The notes under the pieces: model-generated | The model's input: only the letters and a program-made list of their open reading frames with translations | Databases searched by the model: none | What the model was told of the DNA's origin: nothing | Program-made: the position numbers and the translations under genes | Shown: positions 1,137-23,075 of the stretch, piece by piece | Numbering within the stretch: position 1 is the first letter of the stretch | Layout of the letters: each line of letters begins with the position of its first letter | Source: a virus | Lineage: Duplodnaviria; Heunggongvirae; Uroviricota; Caudoviricetes | IMG/VR virus record: IMGVR_UViG_2744054854_000005 | Direction: 5' to 3' (one strand) | DNA length: 36,635 bases

Positions 1137-2813
1137 CTAAGCAACATGTAGTTCATCGTTGGCGGAAGTGGCTGCTTTGCGTTCCTGATCAATAGATAGT
1201 GACTCTCTATATTCTTTCGCCTCTGCAAACATTGTCCAGTGGGCATTGATGTTCATATCTTCAATAACCGATTTAATTTCTTTAATATTTACGTTAAAAA
1301 ACTCTTTTCGTGAGTTAATTTTATTGACCTGCTTTTCGTTGAAGACTTTATGCAGATGATTTTCTAATGACGGTGCATCATCACTATAAATCATCGCATG
1401 AACATCGAACGAAAAAGGAACACTAGCATCCCCAAGTTCACGAACACGATCAAGTGGTTCAAGGCGGCGTGTCATTCCAATTTTATATACATCTTCGCCA
1501 AATGAGCCAATATTGCTAATTATATAAACATGGCCTGATCTAGTTTGTTGAGCCATAGAAATAGCTCGTTGGTTTTTAGCTTCAGCTTCTTCATATTTTA
1601 ACTGTAGTTCAGCTATTTTTTGCTCCAAAGCTAAGCGTTGTTCTTCATTTGCAAGCATAAGCTCTTTCGTTGCTTTATTTATAGCTTGCTGAATAGCTTT
1701 CTCTTCTTTTTCGGCTTCTTTTATCGCTTTTTCATACTCTCTACGAGCTCTTTCCTCTTCACGAAGCTGTTCTTTAATCCTTCTTTGCTCCTCTTTTTCT
1801 TCGAGCATAATTTCATTAACTGCAACTCCCCATTTTAGCTCGTTGAGTCGTGCCTGAAGATAGATGTCACTTATTTTTGCGGATCTAAAAGCAGAGCCAT
1901 TATAATTTACAAGTTGAAATGCATCTTTTATTTCTTGGGAAAGTTTTCCAAAATTGTTGTGTTTGACTTTTGATAAAATACTGTCAACTCTTCCATTGAA
2001 GGCATCCAAAACAAAGTTGATAGCAGTATTACGCCTGTTTTGCTCAACATAATCACACGAAGCTGCTTTATTAGTTTTTATTAATGATTTTGTTAACTCC
2101 CTGGCTTTTTGTAATTCCTTGCCTGCATCTGTAAACTCATAATTTTCTGCCAATTCATCAAGTACACTACGGTTAGGGATGATCCATTCATCGCCATAAC
2201 CTTCAATTTTATTTTTCATTGATTTGGCAACTGCTTCATATTTTTCTGCAAACTCTTTAGCTTCATATGCTGAACCAGCAATCTCTTTTGCTCTTTCTTC
2301 TGCATCGGAAATAATTTTTACTGCGTTGTCATTAGCATTTGAGATCAGCTCATTTGCTTTACTGTTGGCATTATCAAGACGTTCTTTGGCTTTCAGGCGT
2401 GCATCGCGAGCGTCTTTGGTGATTGCTATAGCTTCGCTATTAGCGTTGCTTATTGTTATCTGAGCTTGATAACTTGCTTCGTTTACTGTCTTAGCTGCCT
2501 TTATTTGGGCTTCTTCTATTTTTTGCCTAGCTATTGAGTCTGCATTTTTTATCTTATTCTCTGCCTCCATCACTGCGCTGTGCAATTCTTCGTATTGCCA
2601 TAATGGTGCTGCTCGCCCTTCAAGCTCTGATAGATCTCGTGCAGTCTGTGCTAACTTTTCTTGATTTTCACTCAGTTGGCTGGAAAGGGCTATGTTGTTA
2701 GCCGTCAGGTTATCTATGGCGGCTTTGTGTTCTTTACTTTGCTTAAATAATATTATAGCTAGAACAGGGGCGAGAAATGCTAATAAGAATATAACGATGG
2801 AAAATGAATTCAT
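1137..2813 (-). CDS. membrane-anchored coiled-coil protein with C-terminal T5orf172 (GIY-YIG-like) domain; DUF4041-like architecture; candidate defense/abortive-infection cargo
   Basis: 558 aa. N-terminal hydrophobic helix (FSIVIFLLAFLAPVLAIILF), long Ala/Lys/Glu-rich coiled coil, C-terminal motif GHVYIISNIGSFGEDVYKIGMTRRLEPLDRVRELGDASVPFSFDVHAMIYS...LENHLHKVF...RKEFFNV typical of T5orf172. AAGGA ribosome-binding site 8 nt upstream; strongly AT-rich relative to phage core; inserted 20 bp after the cI stop. Confidence 0.8.
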   Translation of the reverse strand: MNSFSIVIFLLAFLAPVLAIILFKQSKEHKAAIDNLTANNIALSSQLSENQEKLAQTARDLSELEGRAAPLWQYEELHSAVMEAENKIKNADSIARQKIEEAQIKAAKTVNEASYQAQITISNANSEAIAITKDARDARLKAKERLDNANSKANELISNANDNAVKIISDAEERAKEIAGSAYEAKEFAEKYEAVAKSMKNKIEGYGDEWIIPNRSVLDELAENYEFTDAGKELQKARELTKSLIKTNKAASCDYVEQNRRNTAINFVLDAFNGRVDSILSKVKHNNFGKLSQEIKDAFQLVNYNGSAFRSAKISDIYLQARLNELKWGVAVNEIMLEEKEEQRRIKEQLREEERARREYEKAIKEAEKEEKAIQQAINKATKELMLANEEQRLALEQKIAELQLKYEEAEAKNQRAISMAQQTRSGHVYIISNIGSFGEDVYKIGMTRRLEPLDRVRELGDASVPFSFDVHAMIYSDDAPSLENHLHKVFNEKQVNKINSRKEFFNVNIKEIKSVIEDMNINAHWTMFAEAKEYRESLSIDQERKAATSANDELHVA

Positions 2814-2833
2814 TTTTAAATCCTTTTACTATA

Positions 2834-3430
2834 TCAATTTGAAACTATTGTACTTCTTATACAAGCAACCACTTCAATATCAGAAAATGCACATTCAAAG
2901 CTATTCTCTGTAGTTGTAATTTTAATCATACCTTTTGGAAGCTTTGTGATTTTTCGAATGGAATAGGTTCCGTCGATGTTGATTAACCAGTGTCCATCAA
3001 GTACTTCAGAAAATTTTTGATCACAAATGTATGTGACAAGCCCATCCTGAATAACAATTGGTGATGAAAGATTTGCAGGAAGAAATGATGAATCGAATAT
3101 ATATGAACCATCTTCAATCATTTTGCCTGCGGTAAGGCGAAACTTGGGAAGCTCTTCTGTGGCTACTGTCAGCGAGCTTTGCTTAAGTCCTTGCCCGGTG
3201 GTTAACCATTTCAGTGAGGTTCCTGTTTCAAGAGCACATTGGATTATCCAGTCTGCAGGAAACGTATCCCGCAAATACCTGTTCGCCAGAGTGCTTTTTG
3301 ATACTTCCAAGTGATCAGCTAAAGCCTGTCGTGTCGTAAAGCCATAAGCTTCGACTAATCGCTCAATCGCAGCCTTACCACCTTTATTGGGATTTATTTT
3401 GATCTCACTTGGGTACTTTGATGTTGACAT
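2834..3430 (-). CDS. cI: 186-type CI immunity repressor
   Basis: 198 aa with N-terminal HTH (GFTTRQALADHLEVSKSTLANRY) and a C-terminal oligomerisation-type domain. Divergent from apl/cII, upstream of int on the same strand. Confidence 0.8.
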   Translation of the reverse strand: MSTSKYPSEIKINPNKGGKAAIERLVEAYGFTTRQALADHLEVSKSTLANRYLRDTFPADWIIQCALETGTSLKWLTTGQGLKQSSLTVATEELPKFRLTAGKMIEDGSYIFDSSFLPANLSSPIVIQDGLVTYICDQKFSEVLDGHWLINIDGTYSIRKITKLPKGMIKITTTENSFECAFSDIEVVACIRSTIVSN

Positions 3431-3525
3431 ATCTCTTTTGCGATCCTAGTATCAGTTTTGTCCCCATTTGGGTACTTGTCACGATTACTACAGGCTCACC
3501 ACAAGCCAATAGGAGATGTTGCATC

Positions 3526-3747
3526 ATGACCCCTAACATTTCAATAACTCTGAATACGCCACATGTCACAATTGAGCGTTATAGCGAACTTACTGGTCTT
3601 TCAATCGACACAATTAACGATATGCTGGCTGACGGTCGCATCCCTCGGCATCGCCTTCGGAAAGACAAGAAAAGAGAAAAGGTGATGATCAACCTTGCTG
3701 CTCTTACCGTTGATGCACTTACTGATTGCAATGTTGTATTCAACTAG
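3526..3747 (+). CDS. apl: Apl/Cox-like excisionase and switch regulator
   Basis: 73-aa basic HTH protein, first gene of the rightward early operon. AGGAGA ribosome-binding site upstream of the ATG at 3526; the longer ORF-track start at 3409 lacks one. Confidence 0.7.
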
Positions 3748-3779
3748 TTCCATTTTGGGATACATCAGGGGTGTCGACC

Positions 3780-4289
3780 ATGTTTGATTACCAAGTTTCC
3801 AAACATCCACATTTTGATGAAGCCTGTCGTGCATTCGCATTGCGCCACAACCTGGTGCAACTGGCAGAACGTGCTGGCATGAATGTGCAGATCCTGCGGA
3901 ACAAGCTGAACCCATCTCAACCTCATTTATTAACCGCACCAGAAATCTGGCTGCTTACCGATCTGACTGAAGATTCAACGCTGGTAGATGGTTTTCTGGC
4001 ACAGATTCACTGCCTGCCATGTGTACCGGTTAATGAGGTTGCAAAAGAGAAACTGCCGCATTACGTCATGAGTGCAACTGCAGAGATCGGGCGTGTTGCT
4101 GCAGGTGCGGTATCTGGTGATGTAAAAACCAGTGCAGGTCGTCGTGATGCTATCAGCAGCATTAACTCTGTTACACGACTGATGGCGTTGGCTGCTGTTT
4201 CATTGCAGGCCCGTTTACAGGCTAATCCTGCGATGGCAAGTGCAGTTGATACTGTAACTGGCCTCGGTGCTTCATTCGGTTTGCTGTGA
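3780..4289 (+). CDS. cII: CII-like transcriptional activator of lysogeny
   Basis: 169 aa, matching the size and position of 186 CII and recalled as closely similar to it ([20 protein letters not shown]...). Internal ATG chosen over the ORF-track start. Confidence 0.75.
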
Positions 4290-4296
4290 GGTGCTT

Positions 4297-4530
4297 ATGC
4301 TGACGAAAGAACCATCATTTGCATCGCTGCTGGTAAAACAAAGCCCGGCAATGCACTACGGTCACGGCTGGATTTATTTACCTTGTGGGAAAAAGTGGCA
4401 TCCAAGTTTTGAATTACAACCCCGGCAACAGGCTTACCGGGGAAGAAATAAAAAGCGATTCCTACAAAGATTTATGGTTAACGTGGCAAACAACCTGCGA
4501 ACCAAGCGAAAAGTTTCTCTTGGAAGCTGA
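4297..4530 (+). CDS. hypothetical small early protein (at the position of 186 fil)
   Basis: 77-aa ORF with GAGGTG ribosome-binding site directly after cII. Overlaps the end of a minus-strand ORF, so the call is uncertain. Confidence 0.4.
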   Translation: MLTKEPSFASLLVKQSPAMHYGHGWIYLPCGKKWHPSFELQPRQQAYRGRNKKRFLQRFMVNVANNLRTKRKVSLGS

Positions 4531-4936
4531 GGTTTACATCGTCAACCCGACCGCAGGCAATAGCCGCTCGTTTGTAAGCTGGATTTAACAAAGAACCGAA
4601 TGTTGTGGAGTCAGAGTGATGCAAAGTTTTCAATTTTTGTGCAATGAACTGTGGAGACAATTCATCCTCGGCGTAAAGCAACTCACCATATTGTCGGCTT
4701 TGTACGCTTGCTCGTTCCTCGATAATAGCTGGTTGCCATACAAGTTGGATTGTTGCGATTACAACAACAGGAAAAGCGAACAACCATTCCAGACCTGTAT
4801 TAGCAAATACAGCGGTTCCGCTTATAAGTTGGATTGCTGTCATTAATTTATCAGCTCGACCATGGAACGTTGCTGTCATTAGTTCAAGGTAATAACAGTA
4901 GTGCAATTGGAAGTATTCGGAGCTTTGTTTAGTCAT
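4478..4936 (-). CDS. hypothetical protein with a central hydrophobic segment (antisense to the early operon)
   Basis: 152-codon open frame in an AT-rich stretch, AGGA 7 nt upstream, hydrophobic segment WLFAFPVVVIATIQLVW. Conflicts with plus-strand ORFs 4385..4588 and 4616..4846; which strand is coding cannot be decided by eye. Confidence 0.35.
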   Translation of the reverse strand: MTKQSSEYFQLHYCYYLELMTATFHGRADKLMTAIQLISGTAVFANTGLEWLFAFPVVVIATIQLVWQPAIIEERASVQSRQYGELLYAEDELSPQFIAQKLKTLHHSDSTTFGSLLNPAYKRAAIACGRVDDVNLSFQEKLFAWFAGCLPR

Positions 4937-4945
4937 GCCGGATTC

Positions 4946-5026
4946 CTATTTTTTATCTTGCCCCGGTTCTGGCTTAGGTGCAGGGGCAGGACGAGGCAAT
5001 ACATGGAAGTTGTCAGAGTCTGACAT
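4946..5026 (-). CDS. possible 26-aa proline-rich leader ORF (MSDSDNFHVLPRPAPAPKPEPGQDKK) coupled to the 152-aa minus-strand ORF
   Basis: ATG preceded by AAGGAGA at 6-nt spacing. Its stop TAG overlaps the AGGA ribosome-binding site of the downstream ORF, 9 nt before that ORF's ATG. Confidence 0.25.
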   Translation of the reverse strand: MSDSDNFHVLPRPAPAPKPEPGQDKK

Positions 5027-5155
5027 CAGGTTTCTCCTTCGAGGGGTAGATGATTGTTGGCGCAAACAGTCTACCACCAAGGCACGCGCCGGGCGTGTGA
5101 AAAAATTCCCGGCACAACTTCAAATAGGCATATGTACGACGAGATAGGAGGGGTA

Positions 5156-5497
5156 ATGGCAATTGATGGCCCAGCGGCAACTGTTCCATTAAGCCCCGGC
5201 GAACGCCTGAATGGACTTAATCACATTGCGGAGTTAAGGGCGAAAGTTTTTGGTCTGAATATTGAGTCAGAGCTTGAGCGGTTTATTAAAGATATGCGTG
5301 ATCCACGGGATATCAATAATGAACAAAATAAACGGGCACTGGCTGCCATATTCTTTATGGCAAAAATTCCAGCTGAACGTCATAGCATCAGCATTAATGA
5401 GCTGACCACTGACGAAAAGCGGGAGCTGATTAAAGCTATGAATCATTTTCGTGCAGTGGTGAGCTTATTTCCTAGACGGCTAACCATGCCGAATTAA
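5156..5497 (+). CDS. hypothetical early protein
   Basis: 113 aa from an internal ATG with GGAGG ribosome-binding site; same orientation as the early operon. Confidence 0.55.
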   Translation: MAIDGPAATVPLSPGERLNGLNHIAELRAKVFGLNIESELERFIKDMRDPRDINNEQNKRALAAIFFMAKIPAERHSISINELTTDEKRELIKAMNHFRAVVSLFPRRLTMPN

Positions 5498-5564
5498 CAA
5501 ACTAATGAAATTAATGGCGTAAACCCGCCGGGTATCCCTTTATCTAAATTCAGGAGAATTGACT

Positions 5565-5798
5565 ATGCGTAATATTGAAACTCTCACGACTAAAACCGGA
5601 CCGGATGATGCAGGGCTTAATATTTTACTGACAGAGGCTCGTCTGGAAGAACGCCGGGCAAGGGCTGAAGCAATGGCAGCTCGCCTTGATAGCCTGGCGT
5701 GTCATATCACATCCAGCCAGCTAAACCACGTCGAAGCAGCAGAACTACTGCGTGTAACTGCTGAAGCAATCCAGAACGAAGCGCAGGAGATCCACTAA
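5565..5798 (+). CDS. hypothetical early protein
   Basis: 77 aa, AGGAGA ribosome-binding site 7 nt upstream of the ATG at 5565. Confidence 0.5.
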   Translation: MRNIETLTTKTGPDDAGLNILLTEARLEERRARAEAMAARLDSLACHITSSQLNHVEAAELLRVTAEAIQNEAQEIH

Positions 5799-6025
5799 TG
5801 GCTGATGCAATGGATCTCGTACAGCAGCGCGTTGAAGAAGAACGCCAGCGCCATATCCGTGCTGCCCGTGCCAAAACGCCGGGCGTGTCCCGCGTGCTTT
5901 GCATTGAGTGTGAAGCGCCAATTCCGCCAGCACGCCGCCGTGCCATTCCGGGTGTGCAGCTTTGCATTACCTGTCAGGAAATCGCAGAGCTGAAAGGCAA
6001 ACATTACAACGGAGGTGCTGTATGA
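5798..6025 (+). CDS. DksA/TraR-family C4 zinc-finger protein
   Basis: 75 aa with CIEC...(17 aa)...CITC four-cysteine motif, as in P2-family TraR-like proteins. Start overlaps the previous stop; stop overlaps the dam start. Confidence 0.7.
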   Translation: MADAMDLVQQRVEEERQRHIRAARAKTPGVSRVLCIECEAPIPPARRRAIPGVQLCITCQEIAELKGKHYNGGAV

Positions 6026-6879
6026 GCACCATCCTGAAATGGGCGGGAAATAAAACCGCCGTAATGTCCGAACTGAAAAAACATCTTCCTGCTGGTCCGC
6101 GACTGGTTGAACCTTTCGCTGGTTCCTGTGCTGTGATGATGGAGACGGATTATCCGTGCTATCTGGTTGCGGATATTAATCCTGATTTAATCAACCTCTA
6201 TAAAAAGGTTGCCGCTGATTGTGAATCGTTTATATCTCGCGCCAAAGTTTTATTTGAGATCGCAAACAGGGAGGTGGCTTATTACAACATAAGGCAGGAG
6301 TTTAATTACTCAACTGAAATTACTGATTTCATGAAAGCGGTATATTTACTGTATCTCAATCGTCACGGTTACCGTGGGTTATGTCGCTATAACAAGAGCG
6401 GGCATTTCAACATTCCCTACGGTAATTATAAAAATCCGTATTTCCCTGAAAAAGAAATTCGCGCATTTGCAGAGAAAGCCCCGCGAGCAACGTTTATCTG
6501 CGCCAGCTTTGATGAAACGCTGGCGATGCTGCAGGTGGGGGATGTGGTGTATTGCGATCCGCCGTATGACGGTACGTTTTCCGGCTATCACACTGATGGC
6601 TTCACTGAGGATGACCAGTATCACCTGGCATCCGTTCTTGAACATCGATCATCTGAAGGTCATCCGGTCATTGTTTCTAACAGTGACACATCCCTGATCC
6701 GTTCGCTGTATCGCAATTTCACTCACCACTACATCAAGGCAAAACGCAGCATCGGCGTGTCGGCTGGCGAGAGTAAATCTGCAACAGAAATCATTGCTGT
6801 TTCCGGGCCGCGCTGCTGGATGGGATTTGATCCTTCGCGTGGCGTGGATAGTTCTGCTGTGTACGAGGTGCGTGTATGA
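6022..6879 (+). CDS. dam: DNA adenine methyltransferase (Dam family)
   Basis: N-terminal LKWAGNK motif and catalytic DPPY ([10 protein letters not shown]). GGAGG ribosome-binding site before the ATG at 6022. Confidence 0.85.
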
Positions 6880-9128
6880 GTCATGACGATATGAGCAACT
6901 CTAGCGGCTTTAACGAGGCTGCCGCAGCATTTTCATGGAACGGCCCGAAAAAGGCCATTAACCCTTATCTGGAACCGGCGGAAGTTGCGCCGGAGTCTGC
7001 ACTTTCAAACATGATCACTCTGTACGCTGCCGATAACGAGCAGGAACAGCGCCGCCGCGAGGCACTGAGTGATCAGGTCTGGGAACGTTATTTCTTTAAT
7101 GAATCCCGTGATCCTGTCCAGCGCGAAATGGAGCAGGATAAGCTCATTAGCCGGGCAAAGCTGGCGCATGAACAGCAGCGTTTTAACCCGGACATGGTCA
7201 TTCTGGCAGATGTCAGCGCCCAGCCTTCCCATATCAGCAAGCCGCAGATGCAACGTATTGAATACTTCAGCAGCCTGGGCAGGCCAAAGGCTTATTCCCG
7301 CTATTTGCGTGAGACGATTAAGCCATGTCTGGAACGGCTGGAGCATGTACGCGACAGTCAGCTATCCACTTCTTTTCGCTTTATGGCAAGCCATGAAGGG
7401 CTGGACGGCCTGTTGATTCTGCCTGAAATGAGTCAGGATCAGGTGAAACGCCTGTCCACCCTTGTTGCTGCGCATATGAGCATGTGCCTTGATGCAGCTT
7501 GTGGCGATTTGTATGCCTCCGATGATGTTAAGCCGGAAGAAATCCGCAAGACATGGGAAAAGGTGGCAGCAGAAACCCTGCGACTGGATGTCATACCGCC
7601 TGCGTTTGAGCAACTCCGCCGGAAAAGAAACCGCCGCAAACCTGTGCCCTATGAACTCATTCCGGGTTCGCTGGCGCGTATGCTGTGCGCCGACTGGTGG
7701 TATCGGAAATTATGGAAGATGCGTTGCGAATGGCGGGAAGAGCAGTTGCGTGCTGTTTGTCTGGTCAGCAAAAAAGCATCTCCCTATGTTAGCTATGAAG
7801 CCGTGATGCATAAACGTGAGCAGCGCCGTAAGTCGCTGGAGTTTTTCCGCTCTCATGAACTGGTGAACGAAGACGGCGACACGCTGGACATGGAGGATGT
7901 GGTAAACGCCAGCAGCAGCAACCCGGCGCATCGCCGCAATGAGATGATGGCCTGCGTTAAAGGTCTGGAGCTTATCGCGGAAATGCGTGGTGACTGCGCC
8001 GTTTTCTACACTATCACCTGTCCGTCACGTTTCCATTCCACGCTAAATAACGGCAGGCCAAACCCGACCTGGACCAACGCGACAGTAAGACAAAGCAGCG
8101 ATTATCTGGTCGGCATGTTTGCTGCATTTCGTAAGGCTATGCACAAATCCGGATTGCGCTGGTATGGCGTGCGGGTGGCTGAGCCGCATCATGACGGTAC
8201 AGTTCACTGGCACCTGTTGTGTTTTATGCGCAAAAAAGATCGCCGCGCCATTACTGCTTTGTTGCGTAAGTTTGCCATACGTGAAGACCGCGAGGAGCTG
8301 GGCAATAACACGGGGCCGCGCTTTAAGTCTGAGTTGATTAACCCGCGCAAAGGAACGCCGACAAGCTACATCGCGAAATATATCAGCAAGAACATTGACG
8401 GGCGTGGTCTGGCTGGCGAGATCAGTAAGGAAACGGGTAAATCTCTGCGTGATAACGCTGAATACGTGAATGCCTGGGCGTCTTTGCATCGTGTTCAGCA
8501 ATTCCGCTTCTTTGGCATTCCGGGGCGCCAGGCTTACCGTGAACTGCGATTGCTGGCTGGTCAGGCGGCAAGGCAACAGGGGGACAAAAAAGCAGGTGCG
8601 CCGGTACTGGATAACCCGCGCNNNNNNNNNNNNNNNNNNNNNNNNNNNNNNNNNNNNNNNNNNGTGAAGTGGAAAATGGTTCGTAAAGCCGTTGACGTTC
8701 AGGAGGCGGTAGCCGACCAGGGCGCTTGCGCCCCTTGGACTCGTGGCAATAACTGTCCCCTTGCTGAAAATTTGAACCAACAAGGGAAAGACAAATCAGC
8801 TTATGGGGATACCAGAACGGACATTACCCGCATGGATGACAAGGAGTTGCACGATTACCTGCACAGTATGAGCAAAAAAGAGCGCCGGGAACTGGCTGCA
8901 AGGTTACGCCTGGTGAAACCGAAACGGCGTAAAGACTACAAACAGCGAATTACAGACCATCAGCGACAGCAGCTCGTCTATGAGCTGAAGTCCAGAGGAT
9001 TTGATGGCAGCGAGAAAGAGGTCGGTTTACTCCTTCGCGGCGGCAGTATTCCGTCAGGAGCAGGCCTGCGTATCTTCTATCGGAACCAGCGTTTGCAGGA
9101 AGATGATAAGTGGCGGGATCTGTATTAA
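6876..9128 (+). CDS. A: replication initiation endonuclease A (rolling-circle initiator, P2 gpA family); contains an assembly gap
   Basis: 750 aa with HWHLLCF and YIAKYISK tyrosine motifs typical of gpA. An in-frame 42-N run lies inside the ORF. Confidence 0.85.
8622..8663. other. assembly gap (42 N) inside gene A
   Basis: Run of n characters; true length unknown. Confidence 0.95.
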
Positions 9129-22975: not shown

Positions 22976-23075
22976 NNNNNNNNNNNNNNNNNNNNNNNNN
23001 NNNNNNNNNNNNNNNNNNNNNNNNNNNNNNNNNNNNNNNNNNNNNNNNNNNNNNNNNNNNNNNNNNNNNNNNNNN
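22976..23075. other. assembly gap (100 N) in the variable tail-fiber region
   Basis: Run of n characters; 100 is a conventional placeholder length, so the missing sequence may be much longer. Confidence 0.95.

Follow-up and report, generated by a model that had tools for sequence, protein, structure and literature searches.

We examined an imperfect 16-bp direct repeat in the early region of a 36,635-nt stretch of tailed-phage DNA (Caudoviricetes; IMG/VR record IMGVR_UViG_2744054854_000005), the whole of which is called the window here. Judged against five homologous loci, the repeat is a by-product of coding, and neither a DNA element nor a detectable duplication: its two copies encode similar short segments of the two predicted transmembrane helices of a 152-amino-acid (aa) protein, whose gene lies on the minus strand, antisense to the early lytic operon of a 186/Fels-2-type (Peduoviridae) Escherichia coli prophage. 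Directly upstream of this gene is an unannotated open reading frame (ORF) for a proline-rich micropeptide, and together they form an accessory cassette. Taken whole, we consider this explanation (coding by-product, antisense cassette, putative membrane effector of the lysogen) highly probable; the proposals on function are more tentative.

The copies of the repeat, written on the plus strand and coding on the minus strand, lie at 4740-4755 (ACAAGTTGGATTGTTG) and 4824-4839 (ATAAGTTGGATTGCTG). An earlier note on this DNA had both 16-mers letter for letter as they stand in the window; its coordinates (4737-4752 and 4823-4838) are off by 3 nt and 1 nt, and its spacing of 86 becomes 84 nt, or 28 codons, when measured from start to start. 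The copies are identical at 14 of 16 positions, and the likeness extends to 19/23 (83%) over 4739-4761 and 4823-4845. A search of the window with copy 1 at up to three mismatches has an expectation of 0.32 chance matches. Within 200 nt of each other, 7 distinct pairs of 16-mers in the window agree at 14 or more of 16 positions, versus 1.45 +/- 1.17 (maximum 5) in first-order Markov simulations. The repeat, statistically weak and only weakly unusual, is thus nothing special in a window where others of its grade are common.

Both copies fall inside the 152-aa minus-strand ORF, each starting at codon position 2. Read on that strand, copy 1 encodes A-T-I-Q-L-V-W (aa 61-67, in transmembrane helix 2) and copy 2 encodes T-A-I-Q-L-I-S (aa 33-39, in transmembrane helix 1). 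Ile-Gln-Leu is spelled ATC CAA CTT in both helices here, and the neighboring Thr and Ala are spelled ACA and GCA, which accounts for the 14/16 nucleotide identity. Five homologues (85-66% nucleotide identity) keep the peptide motifs with different synonymous codons, and their copy-to-copy DNA identity is 10 (Fels-2), 11 (Yersinia), 10 (Hafnia), 12 (Pectobacterium) and 12 (Kosakonia) of 16, a residue of identity that the shared amino acids require. Conservation of both copies in related phages, to which the earlier note had looked, is thus found for the peptides, while the DNA repeat decays to 10-12/16. Since the repeat fades where the peptide motifs stay, it is best seen as a by-product of constraint on the protein. 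Gln is the commonest residue at both positions among 100 diverse members of the protein family (Q36 in 57%, Q64 in 49%), so that one membrane-embedded Gln per helix is a family feature; this residue plausibly lines a pore or takes part in helix packing. The repeat itself is ordinary, two transmembrane helices sharing a motif and its codons. As a separate observation, the gene contains a second 14/16 direct repeat, at 4833-4848 and 4869-4884 (TTGCTGTCATTAATT and TTGCTGTCATTAGTT), which on the minus strand encodes L-M-T-A twice (ELMTAT, aa 18-23; KLMTAI, aa 30-35) and is a coding coincidence of the same kind.

The coding sequence of the 152-aa protein, a predicted two-transmembrane helical hairpin, occupies 4478-4936 on the minus strand (stop included). 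The protein matches phrog_6315 over its full length (E 1.7e-75), and the Prokaryotic Genome Annotation Pipeline (PGAP) calls the same minus-strand gene, as WP_096252247.1, "hypothetical protein." Relative to Fels-2, differences in this frame number 17/4/64 at codon positions 1/2/3, with a ratio of nonsynonymous to synonymous rates (dN/dS, or omega) of 0.042; against Kosakonia omega is 0.088. All 17 close homologues, from Salmonella, Kosakonia, Yersinia, Hafnia and Pectobacterium, are 152 aa long. These patterns establish the ORF as a conserved gene evidently under purifying selection. The early-gene stretch that the earlier note called ambiguous is taken up by a clearly defined accessory gene in antisense orientation.

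The gene is convergent with the early lytic operon and embedded in it, between fil and the DUF5347 gene. It belongs to a variable (moron) segment of about 780 bp, from about 4373 to 5155. Salmonella phage RE-2010 and Escherichia phage vB_EcoM-813R9 can be aligned with the window up to a point inside fil and again from the beginning of the DUF5347 gene; in those two phages fil is followed directly by the DUF5347 gene and the cassette is absent. Phage records matching 4300-5200 share only the first 74 nt, within fil, in 43 of 44 cases, and Fels-2 alone shares the whole, at 85.7% identity. Within the segment fil has an alternative 3' half, and this part of fil encloses a minus-strand, terminator-like hairpin (4420-4442) 36 nt past the stop of the 152-aa ORF; then come the 152-aa gene itself, the micropeptide ORF and some 130 bp of DNA upstream. 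Such alignments mark the cassette as a prophage accessory (moron) insert, present in some and absent from others of a set of otherwise collinear phages, with a putative promoter of its own. The 3' half of fil (4373-4530) differs from that of the sister phages, and for 53 nt the fil frame runs across the 3' end of the convergent 152-aa gene.

Relatives of the gene occupy three kinds of site. In 186-like prophages of Yersinia, Hafnia, Pectobacterium and Kosakonia they lie between cII/fil and the next early gene; in Pasteurellaceae lambdoid prophages they lie in the early-left region, beside GmrSD and HEPN genes; and in prophages of Phytobacter, Photorhabdus and Sodalis they lie between the Q antiterminator and the holin. 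These are all classic accessory-gene positions of temperate phages, so the family is found at such sites in several unrelated phage lineages, and every relative examined is oriented opposite to the surrounding lytic genes. Defense genes were also noted near the cassette or the immunity region of some loci (coordinates are those of each locus): KwaA/KwaB beside int in Yersinia (7715-8459), an AAA_15/21 ATPase with DUF4435 (PARIS-like) beside CI in Hafnia (4923-6459), and GmrSD_N with HEPN beside the repressor in Haemophilus (4938-6700).

The family was gathered by exhaustive profile search (E<=1e-3) and clustered at 50% identity. This yielded 170 representative clusters, nearly all of 146-180 aa and aligned end to end, with remote relatives down to about 21-25% identity to the 152-aa protein. 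A Pfam scan of 100 members gave no consistent family, and no Pfam SLATT match at E<=0.01. Hydropathy marks two transmembrane helices, both coded on the minus strand: helix 1 (LMTAIQLISGTAVFANT) at 4796-4846, codons 31-47, and helix 2 (EWLFAFPVVVIATIQLVW) at 4736-4789, codons 50-67; the hydrophobic segments as scored reach over aa 31-45 and 45-73. An AlphaFold2 (AF2) model from a 100-sequence alignment (predicted local distance difference test, pLDDT, 93.7; predicted template modeling score, pTM, 0.86) has a helical hairpin and four shorter helices, the helices spanning residues 6-43, 50-67, 69-88, 95-106, 114-127 and 138-146; the first of these corresponds to transmembrane helix 1 and the second coincides with transmembrane helix 2. 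We thereby define a sizeable family that has no Pfam model but does have a confident structure prediction.

The predicted model and the two hydrophobic stretches match the layout of the SLATT domain, with an N-terminal helix, a two-transmembrane (2TM) hairpin and C-terminal helices. Among the 100 members, 36 match the NCBIfam model SLATT_4 (best E 2.2e-5), 10 match SLATT_1, and SLATT_5 and SLATT_fungal are matched by one each; the PADLOC models "2TM Effector" and "RTasSLATT" are matched by 10 and 5 members. In a Foldseek search of the viral structure library BFVD, nine of the best matches (ranks 2-21) are named SLATT or SMODS-and-SLOG-associating 2TM proteins, all weak (E 0.08-1, TMq 0.24-0.58). 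One nr record names a family member, P0219, "SMODS and SLOG-associating 2TM effector domain family 5." Sequence matches of the family profile in the PDB were spurious. The below-threshold signals from these several sources point the same way, to SLATT 2TM effectors, and the family is probably a remote, stand-alone branch of the SLATT superfamily.

SLATT effectors with which the protein may be compared include the 2TM effectors of CBASS and SLATT-5 of DRT10/UG17. In DRT10, a reverse transcriptase (RT)-SLATT system, the SLATT protein is a membrane effector required for both defense and toxicity (bioRxiv 10.64898/2026.04.29.721553), and RT-SLATT loci have been found on P4-like satellites (PMC9122126). 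The window protein resembles such effectors in its small size (the range being about 150-190 aa) and in its predicted N-terminal helix, transmembrane hairpin and cytosolic C-terminal helices, and its family resembles them in the weak matches to SLATT_4, SLATT_1, SLATT_5 and the PADLOC RT-associated SLATT and 2TM effector models, and in its residence on mobile elements and prophages. It differs in that the family carries a proline-rich micropeptide ORF of 22-46 aa, which we found nowhere described as a partner of SLATT proteins. A literature search found no described stand-alone SLATT protein or micropeptide module, and nothing relevant on Fels-2 STM2733.

Temperate phages are known to encode small inner-membrane proteins of other kinds at accessory sites, among them SieB of lambda and P22, RexB of lambda and gp15 of HK97, each expressed in the lysogen from a promoter of its own. 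In lambda, sieB and rex lie close to the repressor, in the early-left region, and this is where the Pasteurellaceae relatives are found too. The cassette differs from these genes in being antisense to the operon, and neither Pfam SieB nor another named family was matched in sequence. We know of no counterpart of the micropeptide in the SieB, RexB and HK97 gp15 systems.

The micropeptide ORF directly upstream of the 152-aa gene has 26 codons (MSDSDNFHVLPRPAPAPKPEPGQDKK; 4946-5026, minus strand, stop included) and is unannotated both in the Fels-2 record and in the PGAP-annotated record. Its stop, 9 nt short of the main ATG, overlaps the Shine-Dalgarno sequence of the 152-aa gene, and a Shine-Dalgarno of its own, AAGGAG, can be read at 5034-5039 on the minus strand, 7 nt upstream of its ATG. 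The micropeptide is present in every subfamily sampled, with a length of 22-46 aa and the core [FY]-H-V-x-x-R-P-x-P-x-P; versions were found in Yersinia (MADTEDFHVLHRPAPKPQPEPNEDKK), in Haemophilus (MKIEKEERSHVPPRPTPQPKPR) and in the IMG/VR subfamilies (MSDDSNKFHRTHRPAPSEPQQQKQQPERQDKK, MSDENPDYFEKHMPVRQRPPAPPKED and MRINQFGGTERPRPDGQVPYRPTPAPKPKK).

We counted the association over relatives' loci collected with four subfamily alignments, taking as controls the other ORFs of 100 aa or more at these loci. A stricter motif expression, which gave 28/65, was replaced by a composition criterion used with this control set: an ATG-started ORF of 18-60 aa that ends no more than 40 nt from the gene start and has at least four Pro in its last 22 residues. 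So defined, the micropeptide ORF precedes 48 of 66 distinct family genes (73%) versus 6 of 503 control ORFs (1.2%), and several of the remaining 18 genes have a related peptide with fewer prolines (...PLHALHRPYSP..., ...YHVPYKQYDEP...). Substitutions among enterobacterial micropeptides are biased to the third codon position (4/1/12 and 7/3/16), which indicates selection on the peptide sequence. Nine micropeptides had no PHROGs or Pfam match. The cassette thus reveals an unannotated micropeptide gene strongly associated with the family.

Two further ideas about the leader were set aside. An RNA switch or attenuator was rejected, as the minimum free energy of the leader equals the shuffle mean (z 0.00) and its consensus fold is weak; an Rfam search of 3000-6500 gave no match. 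The micropeptide ORF and the main ORF share a frame in the window (4934-5026), where TAG and 9 nt separate them, and likewise in Yersinia and Hafnia, with one stop codon and 9 nt between; an A-rich run (GATAAAAAATAG) precedes the stop. Read-through fusion of the two was rejected because the gap varies from 3 to 15 nt and is not a multiple of 3 in relatives such as Kosakonia and other subfamilies.

The relatives at the Q-holin locus have a different small upstream ORF, of 46-54 aa, with the sequence QVTGDSxPKGLxKTIYEQAKQ and a P/Q-rich tail. In Phytobacter the N-terminal part of this small ORF is fused in frame to the 2TM protein (176 aa), a fusion that hints at a partnership at the protein level and argues for a protein partner over a leader acting purely in cis. 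These small-ORF loci (own coordinates: Phytobacter 4001-4531, Photorhabdus 2935-3099, Sodalis 3851-3991) also share an upstream DNA motif, ATCTGATATCGTTAAATCGCCAAAAGTAAC.

Known leader and arrest peptides include SecM, MifM, the RAPP-type ApdA/ApdP and the proline-codon leaders mgtL/mgtP, with RAPP, RAGP and PPP as arrest motifs. The micropeptide is like these in being a short ORF directly 5' of a membrane-protein gene with a conserved amino acid sequence, in its Arg/Pro-rich core (R-P-x-P-x-P, or RPPAPP in some subfamilies), and in the overlap of its stop with the downstream Shine-Dalgarno. We take the Arg-Pro-rich core to recall both arrest peptides and the proline-rich peptides that bind the ribosome tunnel. 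On the other hand, its leader has no conserved mRNA structure for stalling to remodel, its motif is unlike RAPP, RAGP and PPP, and most versions lack consecutive prolines.

Upstream of the micropeptide, a candidate extended -10 element (TGGTAGACT) was picked out by eye at 5068-5076 on the minus strand. Its pattern TGGTAnAnT is kept in all 186-type relatives, and it may be an extended -10. An inverted repeat, GCCGGG-N14-CCCGGC, lies at 5088-5113 (no strand assigned), centered about 39 bp upstream of the putative transcription start; it is the only such pattern in the window, and every 186-type relative keeps it, Hafnia with the compensated arms CCGAG/CTCGG. It may serve as an operator or, alternatively, form a hairpin in the early RNA. 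It was rejected as a CII site, the CII-type site differing in sequence and lying at 3780-3806. The whole of 4937-5155 is nearly 100% identical to Fels-2, while the adjacent 152-aa gene is about 81% identical, which suggests either that the two recombined recently or that the leader and regulatory part is under stronger constraint.

We lean towards the following account of the cassette in the lysogen. It would be transcribed from its own promoter, with convergent early transcription opposing it after induction; the 152-aa protein would insert into the inner membrane and act in the manner of SLATT effectors, excluding superinfecting phages or aborting infection (that is, killing the cell) by permeabilizing the membrane. 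The micropeptide, more speculatively, would be a translationally coupled partner or regulator, either an inhibitor or antitoxin-like peptide or a cis-acting leader. A bolder proposal, which we put forward as doubtful, is that the two genes form an undescribed module of temperate phages in which the proline-rich micropeptide gates a stand-alone SLATT-like 2TM protein, making a minimal abortive-infection or exclusion system without a sensor. Gating might work through a labile inhibitor, whose loss upon infection-induced shut-off would free the pore, or through a nascent-chain Arg-Pro-rich leader that would report the translation state and set effector synthesis. The module would be spread over 186-like and lambdoid prophages of Enterobacterales and Pasteurellaceae and over many IMG/VR phage contigs. 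If truly an anti-phage or exclusion module, it would be among the smallest known, and would add a micropeptide-gated variant to the SLATT effectors.

Several results weigh against this account. The window protein itself has no match in Pfam, NCBIfam or PADLOC, and so differs from the known SLATT effectors in reaching no SLATT model. All SLATT matches of its relatives are under the curated cut-offs (best about 21 bits vs 55), and such weak matches could partly reflect the composition of transmembrane helices. The Foldseek E-values against SLATT models are likewise weak (0.02-1), and fold searches of the PDB matched no solved structure. Unlike typical SLATT effectors, the family has no SMODS, SLOG, RT or TIR partner adjacent in the same transcription unit in any of 12 annotated contexts, and the window gene has no such neighbor. 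No defense phenotype is known for the 152-aa family. Finally, the promoter of the cassette was identified by eye, and a strict consensus scan of 4200-5300 reported no sigma-70-like site.

Some of these points would suit a different function for the protein, with the same origin of the repeat: a membrane protein of benefit to the phage, such as a holin- or antiholin-like lysis timer, a blocker of injection on the periplasmic side or a lysogenic-conversion factor that has nothing to do with phages, the micropeptide being a mere co-translated operon partner. The below-threshold SLATT similarity, the failure of the window protein to match PADLOC and the holin or lysis genes that adjoin some relatives all fit such a role. 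However, the gene always runs against the lysis or early genes, which puts it outside the lytic program; sister phages have or lack it in the patchy manner of accessory genes; the neighbors of the gene at other loci include the known defense genes GmrSD with HEPN, KwaAB and AAA_15/21 with DUF4435; and three libraries agree on 2TM/SLATT effectors. We regard a function of this other kind as possible, if on the unlikely side. The locus is best described as a new stand-alone, micropeptide-associated variant of SLATT-like 2TM effectors.

The remaining alternatives concern the repeat. It could survive from an internal duplication in which a single helix-coding segment was copied in tandem to give both transmembrane helices: each helix has one motif, the two motifs are in phase and 28 codons apart, and Gln recurs throughout the family at equivalent depth in both helices. 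Beyond the motif of 6-7 residues, however, the helices are dissimilar; the best 7-aa self-match of the protein is 4/7, a value reached by 389 of 500 shuffles. The high nucleotide identity is confined to this genome and comes from synonymous codon choice, and the family, with members down to 21% identity to the window protein, is so old that a duplication could not remain visible in the DNA. We consider this origin improbable. The earlier note had offered, as one possibility, a duplication inside a coding sequence; the coding sequence is there, on the minus strand that it did not consider, but the duplication is not borne out.

Its other suggestion, that the copies are paired binding sites for CII or another phage regulator, finds no support. 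Two similar 16-mers at a distance of 84 bp (eight helical turns), in DNA through which early transcription passes, might be operator or activator sites through which an early regulator (CII, CI, Apl or other) acts on early-region transcription. Yet the DNA identity is conserved in none of the five relatives whereas the encoded peptide is, and substitutions follow codon positions, falling on third positions. The copies sit in the middle of a coding sequence, some 100-200 bp past its start codon and a long way from predicted promoters, and the window has six further repeats as good. It also encodes a CII (3726-4289; PF06892, E 2.3e-42) of the same family as that of phage 186, which binds inverted 7-bp half-sites (ATGTTTG and CAAACAT) two helical turns (about 20 bp) apart at the promoter pE. 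Where cII begins, at 3780-3806, there is an inverted repeat of this form, ATGTTTG-N13-CAAACAT; we take it to match the 186 CII site, and it has no resemblance to the 16-mer. The 16-bp repeat differs from the site at pE in being direct rather than inverted, with a spacing of 84 bp rather than 20 and an unrelated sequence. A regulatory role for the repeat is thus very improbable.

Least credible of all is that the plus strand codes here, the repeat then encoding YKLDCC twice in an early lytic protein: a plus-strand gene, STM2733.1, is annotated at this place in the Fels-2 RefSeq record (NC_010463.1), and the window has a plus-strand ORF of 76 aa (4616-4846) that encodes YKLDCC twice, but this ORF is cut short relative to the roughly 134-135 aa of Fels-2, has an omega of 1.19 with differences concentrated on the first codon position (36/2/9) and matches no Pfam or PHROGs family, against the full-length PHROG match, PGAP annotation and homologues down to 25% identity (22-30% in one search) of the minus-strand ORF. 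From the contrast in omega (1.19 vs 0.04), the truncation in the window and the homology, it follows that the real gene lies on the other strand from STM2733.1; the Fels-2 annotation is almost certainly on the wrong strand, the gene being the 152-aa opposite-strand ORF, and our reading corrects it in this reference genome. In Fels-2's own coordinates STM2733.1 is at 2817-3224 on the plus strand and the 152-aa ORF at 2679-3137 on the minus strand.

The prophage around the cassette is otherwise of the usual 186/Fels-2 type. It encodes the CI repressor (2834-3430, minus strand), Fil (4267-4530; PF10893) and, beyond the cassette, the DUF5347 protein (5156-5497), after which the early region continues with genes for a DksA-like zinc-finger protein, a Dam methylase and gpA. 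This early stretch is 99.9% identical to E. coli GPEC60-12-649 and is carried by 40 of 5426 complete E. coli genomes. The window contains two runs of N, masked or unresolved, at 8622-8663 and 22976-23075; the first interrupts gpA, leaving X's in its translation.

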